From positions 11,011 through 75,010 of the forward strand of contig CAZTWL010000009.1 in NCBI GenBank assembly GCA_964617825.1: DNA of 64,000 nucleotides. Direction: 5' to 3'. Positions 9,717 to 17,234 of this stretch are shown here, in pieces; position 1 is the first letter of the stretch, and the number at the start of each line of letters is the position of its first letter. Position numbers and translations under genes: made by a program. The notes beneath the pieces were generated by a model that was given only the letters and a program-made list of their open reading frames with translations, was not told the DNA's origin and did no database searches. The stretch comes from an uncultured Verrucomicrobiota bacterium. Lineage in GTDB: Bacteria > Verrucomicrobiota > Kiritimatiellia > JAAZAB01.

Positions 9717-12401
9717 TTACATATCCTCGCAAAGCCGCCAGTATACTATCGGCGTCAGGTATCTCCCGCCGAAATTCTCCAGGTGCTGGGTAGCGCCGCC
9801 ATGATAATGGATATACCACTCCGCAAGCGTGCGATCATACACCGCCAGGTCGGAAATGCCATCGCCGTCGAAATCGCCGGAAACAGGGATGCAGTCCGCG
9901 CCGCCCCAGGAGTAGCCATTCATCAACCACGCCCCCGCGAGCGAATAGATGTTCCAGGCCGCATTCACGCGATTATAGAGCGCGAGATCCGATGCGCCAT
10001 CGCCATCGTAATCGCCCGGCACGGGCACCATGTTCGGGCCGCCGAAATTACCGCGATCGATCCGGCCATTCTTGGCATACAGGATCAACCAATCGCCCGT
10101 GGTCTCCGAGTACAGGGCCAAGTCCGAACTACCGTCGCCATCGTAATCGCCCGGCACGGGGAAAAAGCCCGGGGCGCCGAAATTATCTCCGCACAACAGC
10201 CAGGTGCAGTCACGCGTCGATAGAATGTACCAGGCCGCAGTATCCGGATCATAGAGCGCACAATCCGTAAATCCATCGCCATTGTAATCGCCGGGCACCG
10301 GAATAAACGATCCTCCCCCGAAGCCGGTCATACCGGCAACCGTATTTGCTTCCAGATAAAAAACATGCCAGGTGGCGGCTTGCGGATCATAAACCAGGGC
10401 ATCCGACTTGCCGCCGCCGTTATAATCGCCCGGCACCGGCCGGCAGGCGCCGGACCCGAAATTCGCGCCATTGGCCAGCCAGTCCTGCGACAGGGATGAC
10501 CAGATATACCAGTTGCCATTGAGGATGTCATATAACGCAAAATCGCCGCAATTATCTCCGTCGTAATCGTTGTTCAATCCCAGCACGCGCAGATTCGAGG
10601 CCGCCGTCGGCATCGCGCTCCCCACCCCCACCGCCGACCAGGCCGCCATCACGCTTGTCGTCCAGGCAAGATTAAGATCCTGAGCAGCGGAAAGCCAGGC
10701 AGTCCGTGCGGCCCGGTAATCGGTATTCGGCCCGCAATAGACGGTCAATGCCCGATAAGCCAGTTGGCGCACATTCTCGATGCCGATGCCCGTGACGCTG
10801 TAATCGATGCCATCGTTGTTGCCGCTGCCGCCCTCCACGAGCAAGTAGGCCATGTGATTCTGCACGCCGCAATTATAATGCACACCGCCATTATCGTCGC
10901 CGCCATAAAACCAATTCATCCCGTGATATTTGCTCGGATCGGCAAACCGCCCGGGATTACGCATGTCGCGCAAAGCCACCGTATTCGGATAAGTGCAATC
11001 TTCGCCGATCAACCAGTCGGCCTTGCCTGGCGTGCGCCCGGGATAACTGGCGCGCCCGTCATCCTGGCTGGCAAATTCCACAAACGTGCCGAATATATCG
11101 GAGAAGGACTCATCCAATGCCCCTGATTCGCCTTGGTAGATCAGCCCCGCCGTATGCTCCGTGACGGCATGCGTAAACTCGTGGCCGCATACGTCCAGCG
11201 TGGCCAGTTCGGCAAATAACGCGCCCGAATAAAAGAAAAATGCCTGGTCAGCCGTCGACCAGTAAGCATTGTCCGTGCCGCCCCACATATGCACATTGGC
11301 GCGGGCCTGCGCGCCCTGGGCATCGTAACCGCTGCGCCCATGCACGTTGAGGTAATAGTTGCCGATCAAGTTGAAATTATAGGCCGCCGAAATTTCCGTT
11401 GGATCCGAAGCGACCCAGGAATTAGAACCGCGAAAGGCCACCGATCCGCTGTCGGGATAGGAAGACGTATTGTCGCTGTTATAAATCAACCAAGCGGCAT
11501 TGGAAAGCCAGTAAAGGCCGCTGGCGAACAAACCCGGCAACATCACGCGCGCACCGCCTTCCCCATACAGCATATTCCCGTTGATGGCAACATCACTCAT
11601 GGACTTTGAGGCCGACACCGTGCGGATGTCATTATATCGATTCAAGACAACCCCGGATTGCGCGTCAACCCAGTAGCGCCAGCAACCGGCGCCTGCTCCG
11701 GCATCGGTATAAGTCAGGGTCATTTCGTAGGCCAACGCCGGCACAACGCCCCGCGCATAAATCACTATTTCCGGGGTTCCCCAGAGATGACCGACCGGCA
11801 GTCCCATGGCTGCCAAGTCGTTCCCGGCCGCAGTCAGCGCCGCCAAAGGGCCAATGTGCGGCGTCGAATCCACCGACAGGTTCGGGATATAACGTCCGTT
11901 GACCTGGTAGGGCTGTCCGCGGCGATTGAAATGCACAATCAATTCGCCGCCGACCACGCGCCGACCGCCTGCCATCTGGCGCAAGCGCGCATGATGAAAA
12001 CCCTGATCATCGGCATCCACGCGATAGGATTCAAATTCTTGCGCGGCATTATTGATCCGGTAGGCCGCCGCGACCCGCTCCATGACGGCGACAGCCGCCC
12101 CGCGATAGTCACCCCGAAGGCCGGTAACCGGCCCCGTCATGCCCGCAAGCCCGGCGCCGCGCAGCGAGGCTGGCGCTCCGGTTTGTTCATCCCACTGGAC
12201 CGCAACAGCGGGCAGCGCTTTCAGCGCCGCCACTTGAGCGGCCTTTGCCGCGCGAACCGCTTCCGGGGTGGCCTGCGCAGCTGACGCAGCCGCAACGGCG
12301 TTCCTTGGGCGCAGTGCATCATCCGCACGCAAAGCCCATCCGGGCAAAACTCCGGCCAGCGCACCGAGTGCCAGGCCAACGATTATCGGAAAGGATTTCA
12401 T
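9717..12401 (-). CDS. secreted M4 (thermolysin-like) zinc metallopeptidase precursor with five C-terminal FG-GAP repeats
   Basis: A signal peptide starts at ATG 12401. The N-terminal region resembles an FTP/PepSY-like propeptide. The active-site motifs are HEFTH ... GALDESFSD (M4 HExxH plus ExxxD). The C-terminus carries five VPGDYDGDGxSDLALY calcium-loop FG-GAP repeats. Confidence 0.85.
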   Translation of the reverse strand: MKSFPIIVGLALGALAGVLPGWALRADDALRPRNAVAAASAAQATPEAVRAAKAAQVAALKALPAVAVQWDEQTGAPASLRGAGLAGMTGPVTGLRGDYRGAAVAVMERVAAAYRINNAAQEFESYRVDADDQGFHHARLRQMAGGRRVVGGELIVHFNRRGQPYQVNGRYIPNLSVDSTPHIGPLAALTAAGNDLAAMGLPVGHLWGTPEIVIYARGVVPALAYEMTLTYTDAGAGAGCWRYWVDAQSGVVLNRYNDIRTVSASKSMSDVAINGNMLYGEGGARVMLPGLFASGLYWLSNAAWLIYNSDNTSSYPDSGSVAFRGSNSWVASDPTEISAAYNFNLIGNYYLNVHGRSGYDAQGAQARANVHMWGGTDNAYWSTADQAFFFYSGALFAELATLDVCGHEFTHAVTEHTAGLIYQGESGALDESFSDIFGTFVEFASQDDGRASYPGRTPGKADWLIGEDCTYPNTVALRDMRNPGRFADPSKYHGMNWFYGGDDNGGVHYNCGVQNHMAYLLVEGGSGNNDGIDYSVTGIGIENVRQLAYRALTVYCGPNTDYRAARTAWLSAAQDLNLAWTTSVMAAWSAVGVGSAMPTAASNLRVLGLNNDYDGDNCGDFALYDILNGNWYIWSSLSQDWLANGANFGSGACRPVPGDYNGGGKSDALVYDPQAATWHVFYLEANTVAGMTGFGGGSFIPVPGDYNGDGFTDCALYDPDTAAWYILSTRDCTWLLCGDNFGAPGFFPVPGDYDGDGSSDLALYSETTGDWLILYAKNGRIDRGNFGGPNMVPVPGDYDGDGASDLALYNRVNAAWNIYSLAGAWLMNGYSWGGADCIPVSGDFDGDGISDLAVYDRTLAEWYIHYHGGATQHLENFGGRYLTPIVYWRLCEDM

Positions 12402-12502
12402 TGGTCTGATTGTCGCAAACCGCATTCCGTTGCACAAGGCTTTTTGAGGTTTACCGCATAGGGGAAGGTGCTCCGGACGCCTATTTTCCCCATTGTTTCC
12501 CC

Positions 12503-12535
12503 TTGACTTTCCATGACGATCTGTTAAGTTATAAT
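12503..12535 (+). promoter_or_regulatory. candidate sigma70-like promoter (TTGACT -35, TAAGTT/TATAAT -10 region) for the metalloprotease gene at 12561
   Basis: TTGACT at 12503-12508 and TATAAT at 12530-12535 are separated by a non-canonical 21 nt. An alternative extended -10 TGTTAAGTT at 12522-12530 gives 13 nt spacing. A GGGGGTGG ribosome-binding site precedes ATG 12561. Confidence 0.3.
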
Positions 12536-12560: not shown

Positions 12561-14327
12561 GTGGCCATGAAAGTAAGCAGTGGGATAGCGGCAGGATGTG
12601 CAGTCTGGACATTTATCCTTGCACAAAGCGCAATCGGGCAGACAGCCCAAGGTCCACTCCGCCCCGAAGGCATGGCGCTTGCGGATGCCAATGCGCCGCA
12701 ACCGGTCAAAGTGGTGGTCGGGCGCAGTGATGTGCCTCCCTTTCAGGTCGCGCCGCCGGCCAATTTCGCCAAGCAGCCCAAAACCGCGACGTTCACGATC
12801 AATTACCTGAATGCAGGCGAAGTGAACTATTACGGCGACGTCTGCATCGGCTGGCCGGAGGATGCCAAGGCGGCCTTTACCTATGCCGCCAATATCTGGG
12901 GCACCTTGCTGAATTCCTCCGTACCGATCAAGATCAGCGCCTGCTGGGCCAATATGGGCACCGGCGGACTTTTAGGGCATGGCGGCGCACGCAGCTATTA
13001 CAAGGATTTTGCCGGCGCCTTCCAAGCGGGCACTTACTTTCCGGTGGCCATCGCCAATGCCATCTATGGCAGCGATCTGAATGGCAACACGGAAGAAATT
13101 GTGATTGCTTATAATGCCCAATTCACTGAATGGTATTTCGGCACGGGAACTTGTCCCGCGGATAAGTGGGACTTTGTGCAGGTCATTATGCACGAGATGT
13201 GCCATGGACTCGGCTTCATCGGGTCCATGTCCGTTTCCGGCAGCACGGGCTACTGGGGCCTATCCGGATATCCCACGATTTACGATCGTTTCACCGAAAA
13301 CGGGTCCGGCACAAAATTGCTGACCTACACCAGCGGCTCAGTCGCGCTCTACAACCAGCTGGTTAGCGGCAACATCTATTTTAATGGCGCCAACGCCAAC
13401 GCGGGCAACGGCGGCGCCAAGGTCAAGCTGTATGCGCCAAGCACCTGGGCCGGAGGTTCGAGTTATGCGCATCTTGACGAAATCTTCAACGGCACAGCCA
13501 ATGCCATGATGACTTATTCGGTTAATAGCGGCGAAACCATTCATAATCCCGGCCCGGTTACCATGGGCATTTTGAAAGACAACGGCTGGTCGGAGGATCC
13601 CAATCCACCGCACCCGACGATCGAGGGCTCGCCCCTGCTGACGGATTATGACGGCGACCGCTATGCCGACCCGACAATCTATCGCACCGACGGTATATTT
13701 CGCTTACTGCTGTCCTATCTGGGTTATTACACTTACAGTACGGTCTATAACTCTGCGTGCATTGCCCAGCCGGGAGATTTCGACGGCGACGGCGCTGCGG
13801 ATCCCGCGGTGGTGGACACCTCCAGCGGCTACTGGCGCTTCTACAGTTCCGCCAACGGCTACGCGCGATCTTATATCCCCGTCATCTGGTATGCCTCGAG
13901 CGCCACGCCGGTTTGCGGCGATTTCGACGGCGACCGGTACGCCGATCCAATGGCTTATGTCCCCGCAAGCGGCGAGTGGTATATCCTCTCGTCCGGCTAT
14001 GACTACGAGATGTATTACTATATGATTTGGGGCGCATCCGGATACTCCCCCGTCTGCGGCGACTTCGACGGCGACCGCTATGCCGACCCCATGCTCTACA
14101 ACGATGCCACCGGTTACTGGTATATCCTGAGGTCGCGCTATCACTACAGTCAGGCAAGCATGTGGTTCGGTTTGTCCGGCTATACGCCGCTCACCGGCGA
14201 CATCGATGGCGACCGCTATACGGACTTGGCCGTCTACAACAAAACATCGGGACAATGGTACATCCTGCTCTCCAGCAGCGGCGATCAAAACTACATCGGC
14301 GGCGTCTGGGACGGCAGTTCGCTCTAA
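12561..14327 (+). CDS. secreted putative zinc metalloprotease (HEMCHGLGF zincin motif) with four C-terminal FG-GAP repeats
   Basis: Signal peptide. An HExxHxxGF motif is at HEMCHGLGFIGS, with no third His. The C-terminus has CGDFDGDRYADP..Y...G.WYIL repeats. Confidence 0.8.
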   Translation: MAMKVSSGIAAGCAVWTFILAQSAIGQTAQGPLRPEGMALADANAPQPVKVVVGRSDVPPFQVAPPANFAKQPKTATFTINYLNAGEVNYYGDVCIGWPEDAKAAFTYAANIWGTLLNSSVPIKISACWANMGTGGLLGHGGARSYYKDFAGAFQAGTYFPVAIANAIYGSDLNGNTEEIVIAYNAQFTEWYFGTGTCPADKWDFVQVIMHEMCHGLGFIGSMSVSGSTGYWGLSGYPTIYDRFTENGSGTKLLTYTSGSVALYNQLVSGNIYFNGANANAGNGGAKVKLYAPSTWAGGSSYAHLDEIFNGTANAMMTYSVNSGETIHNPGPVTMGILKDNGWSEDPNPPHPTIEGSPLLTDYDGDRYADPTIYRTDGIFRLLLSYLGYYTYSTVYNSACIAQPGDFDGDGAADPAVVDTSSGYWRFYSSANGYARSYIPVIWYASSATPVCGDFDGDRYADPMAYVPASGEWYILSSGYDYEMYYYMIWGASGYSPVCGDFDGDRYADPMLYNDATGYWYILRSRYHYSQASMWFGLSGYTPLTGDIDGDRYTDLAVYNKTSGQWYILLSSSGDQNYIGGVWDGSSL

Positions 14328-14341
14328 ACCCATCATTTGGC

Positions 14342-14384
14342 GGCAAAAGGCCTTGCCGGTCGCAAATTTACAAGGCCTTTTGCC
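14342..14384 (+). terminator. perfect 14-bp stem-loop (GGCAAAAGGCCTTG / CAAGGCCTTTTGCC, 15-nt loop) between the tandem paralogs; no U-tract
   Basis: It lies 15 nt after the stop at 14327. It could be a terminator or an RNA-processing / regulatory structure. Confidence 0.35.
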
Positions 14385-14496
14385 CTGCCAGACAATTTTC
14401 AATTATTGTGGCTTGACTGCATCGCATGCTTTGGTACTTTTACGATCATTAGTGTGCGGCGTCTGAAACGCTCGGTATTAACAGAAGGAGAAACGC

Positions 14497-15927
14497 ATGA
14501 AAGTGAAAGGTTGCTCGGCGGTGGGATTGGTGGTTGGGGCATTGATCTTCGCGCAGGGCGCCATCGGCCAGACGGCTCAAGGGCCACTGCGTCCAGAAGG
14601 AATAACACTGGATGACGCAAGTACGCCGCCGCCGGTCAAGGTAATGATCGGACGGAACGATGTGCCGCAATTTAAAGTTGCTCCGCCGGCCAATTTCGCC
14701 AAGCAGCCTAAAACCGCGACGTTCACGATCAGTTACCTGAACGCAGGCGAAGTGAACTATTACGGCGACGTTTGCATCGGCTGGCCGGAGGATGCCAAGG
14801 CGGCCTTTACCTATGCCGCCAATATCTGGGGAACCTTGCTGAATTCGTCCGTGCCGATCAAGATCAGCGCCTGTTGGGCCAACATGGGCACCGACGGACT
14901 TTTGGGGCATGGCGGCGCGCGCACCTATTACAGGGATTTTGCCGGCGCCCCGCTGGGCGCCACGTTTTATCCCGTGGCGATCGCCAACGCCATCTATGGC
15001 AGCGACCTGAATGGCGGCACGGAAGAAATTGTGATCGCCTATAACGCCCAGTTCACCGACTGGTATTTCGGCACGGATACCTGCCCGGCGGACAAGATTG
15101 ACTTCGCCCAAGTAATCATGCATGAGATGTGCCATGGTCTCGGATTCATCGGCAGCATGTCAGTTTCCAGCAACTTGGGTTATTGGGGCATATCCGATGG
15201 CTCGGCAAATTATCCGGTTATTTACGATCGGTATACCGAGGGCGGGGACGGCACCAAATTGCTGGCCTACAGCAGCGGCACGGCCGCGTTGTATAACCAA
15301 TTGGTGAGCGGCAGCGTCTATTTCAACGGCCCCAACGCCAATGCCGGCAACGGCGGCGCCAAGGTTCCGCTGTATGCGCCGAGCACCTGGTCGGATGGAT
15401 CGAGCTACGCGCATCTGGCTCAAAGCTTCGTGGGCACCGTCAACGGCATGATGACGTATGCGGCCGATTATGGTTCGACAATCCATGATCCCGGTCCGGT
15501 CACCAAGGGCATCTTGGCCGACAATGGCTGGAACGCGGCAAACACTATCGGACCGGTCATCTATGCCAATGGCGTAACAAACGCGATCACGGTTGCCTAC
15601 CCCACTCCCGTGAACATCAACGTGGCCATGAATGCCGGCGGGTATGCGGGCACAAGCGTTGACTGGTGGGTGGTTGTCAACGCCCGCGGCGGCGGCTGGT
15701 ATTGCATGAACAGCGCCATGCAGTTGCTCGAATTCACCGACTGGACCGCGTGCCAGCCGATTCTCCAGTCCCCGCTGTTCACCATCGGGTCCACGCCCGT
15801 CATGAGCGGTCTTGTCATTGCTCCCGGTGTTTATGACTTCTGGTTCGCCATAACTTATCCGATGACCGGGAACATAACCACCAGCCAAGTGACGTTGTTC
15901 GACAAAGTTACGGTCACCGTTCAGTAA
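14497..15927 (+). CDS. secreted putative zinc metalloprotease paralog (HEMCHGLGF) whose C-terminal domain is shared with the SLT protein at 52013
   Basis: Signal peptide. The first ~340 aa are paralogous to the gene at 12561. The FG-GAP repeats are replaced by a ~118-aa domain (YPTPVNINVAMNAGGYAG..DWWVV...TVTVQ). Confidence 0.8.
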   Translation: MKVKGCSAVGLVVGALIFAQGAIGQTAQGPLRPEGITLDDASTPPPVKVMIGRNDVPQFKVAPPANFAKQPKTATFTISYLNAGEVNYYGDVCIGWPEDAKAAFTYAANIWGTLLNSSVPIKISACWANMGTDGLLGHGGARTYYRDFAGAPLGATFYPVAIANAIYGSDLNGGTEEIVIAYNAQFTDWYFGTDTCPADKIDFAQVIMHEMCHGLGFIGSMSVSSNLGYWGISDGSANYPVIYDRYTEGGDGTKLLAYSSGTAALYNQLVSGSVYFNGPNANAGNGGAKVPLYAPSTWSDGSSYAHLAQSFVGTVNGMMTYAADYGSTIHDPGPVTKGILADNGWNAANTIGPVIYANGVTNAITVAYPTPVNINVAMNAGGYAGTSVDWWVVVNARGGGWYCMNSAMQLLEFTDWTACQPILQSPLFTIGSTPVMSGLVIAPGVYDFWFAITYPMTGNITTSQVTLFDKVTVTVQ

Positions 15928-15996: not shown

Positions 15997-16704
15997 TTAA
16001 GCGGGGCAATTACCCTTGGGGGGTTGCCCCGCTCTTTTTTCCAGCCAATCTATAATCCGCGCCGCCACCTTGAGCTTGGTCATAAGCGGCAAAACCCGCA
16101 CACAACCGTCCGCATCCAGCAACGTCACCCGGTTGGTATCCACTTCAAAACCGGCATCGCGGCGACTGACGTCATTGGCCACAATCAGGTCCAGGTTCTT
16201 CTCCGTCAATTTGCGGCGCGCTTCCCCGACCAGCCGCTGCGTCTCCGCGGCAAATCCAACAAATACACGCCGCCCCTTTTTGGATCGCAAAGTCTTGAGA
16301 ATGTCCGGCGTCGGTTCCAGATGCAACACCCCGGACGCCGTTGCCTTCTTGATTTTTTGAGGAGCGACGCGGCGCGGACGCCAGTCGGCCACGGCGGCGG
16401 CCATGATGAGCGCATCGCATCGGCTCAGATGGCGCCGAACGGCCGACAGCATCTCGGCCGCCGTCGTCACCGCCACAAGGACGACCTTTGGCGGGGGGCG
16501 CAGCGCCACCGGCCCGGAAATCAAGGTGACGGCATGGCCCCGCCGCGCAGCCACGCGCGCCAAGGCATATCCCATCTTGCCGCTGGACCGGTTGCTTATA
16601 AAACGCACCGGATCGATCGCTTCACGCGTGGGACCGGCTGTAATTAAAATGCGCATGACGGAAAAGAATGGTTGATAGGCAACGATTTTTATGCCAGGCA
16701 ACAC
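15997..16704 (-). CDS. coaB: phosphopantothenate--cysteine ligase (CoaB domain, encoded as a separate gene)
   Basis: RILITAGPTREAIDPVRFISNRSSGKMG is the CoaB signature. It starts at GTG 16704, or at ATG 16656. It overlaps the coaC 3' end by 16 nt in a different frame. Confidence 0.8.
   Translation of the reverse strand: MLPGIKIVAYQPFFSVMRILITAGPTREAIDPVRFISNRSSGKMGYALARVAARRGHAVTLISGPVALRPPPKVVLVAVTTAAEMLSAVRRHLSRCDALIMAAAVADWRPRRVAPQKIKKATASGVLHLEPTPDILKTLRSKKGRRVFVGFAAETQRLVGEARRKLTEKNLDLIVANDVSRRDAGFEVDTNRVTLLDADGCVRVLPLMTKLKVAARIIDWLEKRAGQPPKGNCPA
16001..16040 (+). terminator. intrinsic terminator (GCGGGGCAA...TTGCCCCGC stem followed by TCTTTTTT) downstream of the gene at 14497..15927
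   Basis: A GC-rich 9-bp stem is followed by a T-run on the + strand. It overlaps the last codons of coaB on the minus strand. Confidence 0.55.
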
Positions 16705-17234
16705 TGTGCCACGGCAGCGACAATCTTATCCAATGCGGCCAGGCGTCCACGCCCCGCATAGCCGCAGGCCAAATCGCCCTGCTCCACATCCAAGATCACG
16801 GCGCCGCGCTCCTTCAGAACGCGCGCATTTTCCCTGGTCGCCGGATGCGCCCACATTTTGTCGTTCATCGCCGGCGCCACCACCAGCGGGGCCTGGCAGG
16901 CCAAAGCGGTCGCGCTCAAGGCATCGTCCGCCAAACCGTGCGCCAGCTTGGCCATGACATTGGCCGTGCAGGGCGCCAGCACAAGCACATCGGCCCAATC
17001 GGCCAGCGCAATATGCGTCGGCCGCCACGCCTCGGTCTCCTGAAACATGTCGACCACCACGGGGCGGCGGGTCAAAGCGCGAAAAGTCAATTCGCCGACA
17101 AACCGGGTGGCGGCCTGGGTCATAATGACCGACACCTCCCAGTTCTTTTTGATCATCAGACGGGTCAATTCGGCCGCCTTGTAGGCGGCAATCGAACCGG
17201 TCACGCCCAAAAGAATATGTTTGCTTTCGGCCAT
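16689..17234 (-). CDS. coaC: phosphopantothenoylcysteine decarboxylase flavoprotein (CoaC domain, separate gene)
   Basis: ILLGVTGSIAAYKA is the FMN-binding motif, and a PAMN motif is present. 181 aa, with its own stop codon. Confidence 0.85.
   Translation of the reverse strand: MAESKHILLGVTGSIAAYKAAELTRLMIKKNWEVSVIMTQAATRFVGELTFRALTRRPVVVDMFQETEAWRPTHIALADWADVLVLAPCTANVMAKLAHGLADDALSATALACQAPLVVAPAMNDKMWAHPATRENARVLKERGAVILDVEQGDLACGYAGRGRLAALDKIVAAVAQCCLA

Follow-up and report, generated by a model that had tools for sequence, protein, structure and literature searches.

A pair of adjacent genes in a Kiritimatiellia-like genome encodes putative secreted metalloproteases related to leishmanolysin

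Two adjacent genes, A and B, were analysed in a stretch of 64,000 nucleotides (the window) of contig CAZTWL010000009.1, assembly GCA_964617825.1, from an uncultured Verrucomicrobiota bacterium of the Kiritimatiellia lineage. The two products are probably secreted zinc endopeptidases of the metzincin clan, with a bacterial catalytic domain distantly related to leishmanolysin (GP63, MEROPS family M8). The most fitting description is that of a separate, uncharacterised branch of bacterial proteins, which would work like leishmanolysin and lies outside both Pfam M8 and the NCBIfam family NF038122; the homology can be read directly from profile and alignment, and peptidase activity of A and B is predicted. 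An earlier note on this DNA had proposed tandem paralogous secreted metalloproteases of metzincin type, a description that is retained here, with signal peptides predicted in both proteins.

Gene A (12567..14327, + strand) codes for 586 amino acids from ATG 12567 and gene B (14497..15927, + strand) for 476. Both products comprise a predicted signal peptide and a leishmanolysin-like metzincin catalytic domain (residues ~63-345), followed in A by FG-GAP-type repeats and in B by an Ig-like beta-sandwich. In the list of open reading frames, A opens at GTG 12561 (588 amino acids). ATG 12567 is most likely the real start and GTG 12561 less likely, because the ribosome-binding site GGGGGTGG precedes ATG 12567 and the NCBI product P0003 agrees with it (586 amino acids, beginning MKVSS). 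As the earlier note had stated, the genes share about 340 collinear residues and the same start sequence: in the BLASTP alignment of A and B, 270 of the 346 N-terminal residues (78%) are identical, with no significant similarity beyond residue 346, and ATGAAAGT is found at the start of both genes.

A probable split zinc motif of the leishmanolysin type

HEMCHGLGF, singled out before as the only zincin-like motif, is the sole HExxH in each protein (translated from 13191..13217 in gene A and 15121..15147 in gene B, both on the + strand). Conservation was counted over 109 aligned homologs of diverse origin and is given in gene B numbering. The motif holds His209, Glu210, His213 and Gly216 in both proteins. 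His209 and His213 are the predicted zinc ligands, Glu210 the predicted general base and Gly216 the candidate metzincin glycine; position 216 is Gly in 71 of the homologs and Asn in 36. At the canonical place of the third ligand, HExxHxxGxx(H/D), neither His nor Asp stands; the earlier note had remarked on the missing third His. Position +10 is Gly219 in A and B and Gly in 104/109, unlike the contiguous HExxHxxGxxH of astacins, serralysins and matrixins.

Just ten columns of the alignment are invariant: L136, H209, E210, H213, P295, G301, S302, S303, H306 and M319. The G, S, S and H columns among them form the GSSYAH element, encoded at 13455..13472 in gene A and 15397..15414 in gene B (+ strand). 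Its histidine, His302 of A and His306 of B, is the proposed third zinc ligand. In B it stands 92 residues after His213, which is also the median spacing in the homologs (range 85-248). The invariant methionine is Met315 of A, in NAMMTY (codon 13509..13511, +), and Met319 of B, in NGMMTY (codon 15451..15453, +); 12-13 residues separate it from the histidine in 98/109 sequences. The best reading of this pattern is a split motif of the leishmanolysin type, HExxHxxG-(~90)-GSSxxH-(12-13)-M.

The relation to leishmanolysin was seen at the level of profiles. A phmmer search of the PDB with the single sequence of B gave no match. A profile built from 31 homologs matched leishmanolysin (1LML) with E = 4.2e-5 in two aligned stretches. 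In the first, sVvLHEigHGLGFlG of the profile aligns to RVVTHEMAHALGFSG of 1LML, and HEMCHGLGF of A and B corresponds to HEMAHALGF(SG). In the second, GSSysHld...LMty aligns to GSAGSHIK...DELMAP. With the chain offset of 99, the aligned residues of 1LML are His264, His268, His334 and Met345, which are its three zinc ligands and the methionine of its Met-turn. In GP63 the metzincin motif is likewise split, by a 62-residue insertion from Gly271 to His334 (PMC9321319). His306 would thus coordinate zinc, since it is invariant in 109/109 homologs and aligned to the leishmanolysin ligand His334. For the third ligand and the family, which the earlier note had regarded as unclear, this evidence offers a probable assignment.

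A confident AlphaFold2 model of residues 1-346 of B was obtained, with a pLDDT of 91.1 and a pTM of 0.87. It consists of a strand at 76-80, a helix at 98-114, strands at 121-128, 135-141, 157-159 and 178-183, the active-site helix at 203-214, a long excursion, and a C-terminal helix at 333-343 after Met319. The predicted order of these elements is the metzincin order, a fold match that we count among the observations. Met319, followed by the helix 333-343 and aligned to Met345 of 1LML, supplies the Met-turn, which the earlier note had proposed to look for by structure prediction.

In the proposed catalytic domain, the beta-sheet and helix A would be followed by the active-site helix bearing H209-E210-x-x-H213-G-L-G216-F. 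Past the glycine the chain would leave the active site, run for about 92 residues (62 in GP63) and come back at GSSxxH306 with the third zinc ligand. Met319, 12-13 residues after His306, would form the Met-turn ahead of the C-terminal helix, and Glu210 would polarise the zinc-bound water for attack on the peptide bond.

The family thus defined resembles leishmanolysin in a near-identical active-site helix, HEM(A/C)H(A/G)LGF, in a metzincin motif split by a long insertion from the glycine to the (here proposed) third His, in the small-residue-rich G-S-x-x-S/A-H setting of that His, and in a Met-turn 11-13 residues past it. It differs in the length of the insertion, about 92 residues against 62. 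The three-domain build of GP63 with its C-terminal domain does not occur in A or B, where the catalytic region extends to about residue 345 and gives way to an FG-GAP or Ig-like module. The many disulfides and the GPI anchor of GP63 are also absent from the family, as is the Cys-switch propeptide: in A and B the first Cys after the signal peptide is Cys93. Unlike GP63, the A/B family occurs in bacteria, carries predicted Sec signal peptides and combines with interchangeable modules (FG-GAP, Ig-like, PKD, and T9SS or PEP-CTERM tails).

Gene conversion between the two genes

Codon-wise comparison of A and B revealed one sharply bounded tract of 264 bp covering residues 63-150 of B (12753..13016 in gene A, likewise residues 63-150, and 14683..14946 in gene B, both on the + strand). 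Inside the tract, nucleotide identity is 94.7% and third-position identity 88.6%. Outside it, the values by segment are 64-79% and 37-68% (56% overall at third positions). The difference between third positions inside and outside the tract is significant by Fisher's exact test (p = 7e-9), and so is that in same-codon use at identical residues (p = 6e-7). The local nucleotide identity of about 95% reported by the earlier note therefore corresponds to this one block. At the protein level, A and B are 95% identical within the tract, whereas neither exceeds 90% identity to any ortholog.

Elsewhere the two genes have other nearest relatives. Over residues 301-346, A is 93% identical to P0008, an FG-GAP-type ortholog from another genome, and 67% identical to B; the closest sequence to B is the B-type P0002 (84%), whose genomic context is a different one. 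The A-type and B-type architectures both recur in several related metagenome-assembled genomes, so the paralogs are older than these lineages. The identity pattern by segment and the recurrence of both architectures mark the tract as a conversion patch between old paralogs. The ~95% block is thus best explained by gene conversion between long-diverged genes, which would have recently homogenised the tract encoding the N-terminal half of the catalytic core.

The other origin that had been suggested is that the catalytic domain was duplicated in tandem not long ago, after which its flanks diverged fast and a C-terminal swap took place. The genes are indeed neighbours that read in the same direction. 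At the syntenic site beside coaB-coaC-gmk-yicC-prfB, a related Kiritimatiellia genome (GCA_041653875.1) carries a single copy, of A type, and tandem pairs are rare in the family, with two copies within 6 kb at 2 of 80 loci in species-representative genomes. Recent duplication is nevertheless unlikely. Third-position identity falls abruptly from 89% to 37-68% within one reading frame, which excludes a single date of duplication for the whole region, and the stronger affinity of A to P0008 than to B over residues 301-346, the affinity of B to P0002 and the age of the two architectures also stand against it. Of the two origins named in the earlier note, gene conversion is accordingly kept and recent duplication given up. 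Tandem duplication as a general trait of the family was likewise rejected, as multiple copies were found at those 2/80 loci only.

Mosaic relations are also seen beyond the main tract. Over residues 151-205, gene B of the window has 88% nucleotide identity to the A-type P0008 and 78% to gene A. Such a pattern suggests that A-type and B-type genes have recombined repeatedly across lineages.

Family assignment and distribution

No Pfam model covers the catalytic region of A or B, and the matches in this database are confined to the FG-GAP repeats at the C-terminus of A. NF038122 ('metallo_LGF' family metalloprotease) scored 46.8 bits with A, 52.1 bits with B and 53.4 bits with the catalytic domain of B alone, against a curated cutoff of 80. 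Of the 274 profile positions about half (~116-254) are matched, and the HExxHxLGF signature with its downstream region is common to both. All 31 sampled members of the A/B family matched NF038122 at E <= 1e-3 (best E 1.1e-22). As the scores of A and B stay below the cutoff and half of the model is matched, the two proteins are relatives of NF038122 and not members. A literature search found no characterised member of NF038122 either. The HMM searches that the earlier note had proposed for the HEMCH region thus gave no Pfam family and an NCBIfam match below cutoff, and it is the family profile that reaches 1LML. The suggestion of a divergent or undescribed metzincin-like subfamily stands as far as a metzincin lacking a Pfam model is concerned; the split motif itself was already known from leishmanolysin.

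Several observations weigh against the assignment to a leishmanolysin-like, secreted peptidase. The superposition on 1LML takes in only 187 of 346 residues (of 465 in 1LML), at 18% identity. Pfam Peptidase_M8 gave no match to A or B at E <= 1, and it is not among the 25 most often matched of the 38 Pfam families hit by the 31 members at E <= 10. The Sec-type signal peptides of A and B, with their cleavage and the secretion of the proteins, are predicted from sequence alone. Our literature search (NF038122, bacterial leishmanolysin homologs, Kiritimatiellota metalloproteases) returned no paper describing the family and no biochemical test of a member.

It was also considered that A and B might belong to another named metzincin group (matrixin, astacin or serralysin-like), with the third His replaced by a residue such as Asp244 or His330 and the likeness to leishmanolysin superficial. 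Pfam Matrixin was weakly matched by 18 of the 31 members (best E 7.7e-5). Asp244 is kept in 108/109 homologs and His330 in 103/109, and a Tyr stands at Met+2 in 70/109, comparable to the Met-x-Tyr of astacins and serralysins. This assignment is very unlikely. In matrixins and serralysins (M10), astacins (M12A) and snapalysin (M7) the third ligand occupies position +10, which is Gly here, and the Tyr at Met+2 is not conserved in the A/B family. His306 and Met319 are strictly invariant, whereas Asp244, His330 and Tyr321 are not, and it is His306 and Met319 that the profile places on the zinc ligand and Met-turn of 1LML. The most improbable alternative is that the proteins are not proteases, being either zinc hydrolases acting on another class of substrate or inert binding modules on a zincin scaffold; the lack of a characterised member and the many adhesion-type or carbohydrate-associated fusions (PKD, DUF11, BACON, Ig-like, T9SS tails) would allow it, but the full catalytic set of H, E, H, H and M is invariant in the 109 sequences, which argues for metzincin chemistry, and to our knowledge every characterised metzincin (MEROPS clan MA(M)) is a peptidase.

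Some features of the site were noted besides. The nearly invariant His330 sits in xIHDPGP. The Met-turn has the consensus L-M-(T/V)-Y, and its Tyr at Met+2 resembles the zinc-binding Tyr of astacins and serralysins; an obligatory astacin-like Tyr switch was rejected, as this Tyr occurs in 70/109 only. A Cys196-Cys212 disulfide, or a Cys ligand beside the active site, was discarded as well, Cys212 being present in 20/109 and Cys196 together with it in 2 only.

The leishmanolysin-like family to which A and B are assigned is large. An exhaustive search of 1.84 billion cluster representatives (clusters at 50% identity) with the profile gave 12,340 proteins at E <= 1e-3, of which 4,752 remained at E <= 1e-30. 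Among species-representative genomes, at least 563 loci in at least 10 phyla encode a relative, which supplies the phyletic survey recommended earlier. The groups among the matches listed include Verrucomicrobiota, Lentisphaerota (Victivallales), Chloroflexota, Gamma- and Betaproteobacteria, Desulfobacterota, Nitrospirota, Bacteroidota (with the cultured Hymenobacter, Emticicia and Flectobacillus), Cyanobacteria, Actinomycetota, Gemmatimonadota, Acidobacteriota and Calditrichia. PKD, DUF11, BACON and Ig-like domains and T9SS tails are among the fusion partners. Those homologs that have a source name go under 'hypothetical protein' or under the name of an accessory domain. A homolog on plasmid NZ_CP111059.1 (36911-37816) is annotated solely by its T9SS sorting tail, and P0064 is named 'serine protease', probably a wrong annotation. 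P0119-P0130 are giant proteins of 3,500-5,300 residues with 4-5 tandem copies of the catalytic domain; such multi-protease polyproteins are unusual.

This large and broadly distributed family, for which neither a Pfam family nor a published study was found, may be the sister group of eukaryotic leishmanolysin and invadolysin among prokaryotes, or the stock from which they arose, a tentative placement to which we give somewhat less than even chances. If it is true, the family would deserve a MEROPS or Pfam entry of its own and would bear on the origin of the GP63 split zinc motif. The current understanding of metzincins is not overturned, nor is a new kind of enzyme proposed; the result is of use chiefly for annotation and for following how the M8 design evolved. 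Thousands of bacterial proteins now called 'hypothetical' or named for an accessory domain could become leishmanolysin-like metzincins by way of His209, Glu210, His213, His306 and Met319. The split zinc motif of GP63 would not be confined to eukaryotes or parasites, and would be widespread in environmental bacteria.

Export, accessory modules and neighbouring genes

The N-termini of A and B read MKV(K/S), a hydrophobic stretch and AQ(G/S)AIG|QTAQ, as expected for the predicted Sec-type signal peptide. A lipoprotein signal was judged unlikely, on the sequence alone, because AAGC (A) and KGC (B) precede the hydrophobic core and do not stand at its end. Residues 25-62 may serve as a propeptide. 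Cys93 and Cys126 probably form a disulfide, since the two residues co-occur across the family (both present in 77 of the 109 homologs, neither in 25, one alone in 7), which fits an exported, extracytoplasmic protein.

The C-termini differ, as the earlier note had observed. The module of A (13629..14324, +) consists of about five FG-GAP/VCBS-type repeats (GDFDGDRYADP...), with Pfam matches to FG-GAP (3.6e-9) and FG-GAP_3 (1.1e-7) spanning residues ~400-565. That of B (15550..15924, +) is a predicted Ig-like beta-sandwich of about 125 amino acids which has no Pfam family. The two modules probably anchor the enzymes to, or direct them towards, different substrates or surfaces.

Divergently from gene A lies a gene for an M4 thermolysin-like protease (9717..12437, - strand), which probably starts at ATG 12401; the product has an FTP propeptide and ends in FG-GAP repeats. 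It matches Pfam Peptidase_M4_C (2.8e-41), Peptidase_M4 (6.1e-19), FTP (2.6e-10) and FG-GAP, and its HEFTH motif is encoded at 11169-11183. This neighbour is a candidate for the third gene in a local group of secreted metalloproteases. Its C-terminus is homologous to that of A (35% identity, E = 5e-27), which indicates that unrelated protease families at one locus share an FG-GAP module. A, B and the M4 protease would together give a Kiritimatiellia-like bacterium a small locus for extracellular proteolysis, and the three-gene cluster points to extracellular protein degradation in this genome. Kiritimatiellia are known for polysaccharide specialisation.

Directly 3' of the gene A stop codon, a hairpin is predicted at 14336..14392 (+ strand; -31.2 kcal/mol, z = -4.9), and none of 200 shuffled sequences folds as well. 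A comparable hairpin (-47.2 kcal/mol) follows the A-type ortholog of a related genome (L001, 9783-9844). Neither the hairpin of the window nor that of L001 is followed by a clear U-tract. The hairpin of gene A is probably a terminator or an mRNA-stabilising stem, and the two hairpins may represent a terminator form typical of the lineage. With the hairpin following A, the two genes are probably separate transcription units. The earlier note had also pointed to a TTGACT element shared by the upstream regions. The hexamer does occur before both genes, at 12503 and 14413, but its distance to the start codon is 64 nt for A and 84 nt for B, it is found 20 times in the window against 15.6 expected, and the regions upstream of A and B show no alignment apart from it. 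With a frequency at chance level, unequal spacing and non-aligning surroundings, it was rejected as a common regulatory element.

The locus is flanked by housekeeping genes, uvrB and nadA upstream and coaB, coaC, gmk, yicC and prfB downstream. CoaB (DFP; 15997-16704, - strand) and CoaC (flavoprotein; 16689-17234, - strand) are encoded by separate, slightly overlapping reading frames, with no fused coaBC, and the same split arrangement is present in the related Kiritimatiellia contigs L001-L003.

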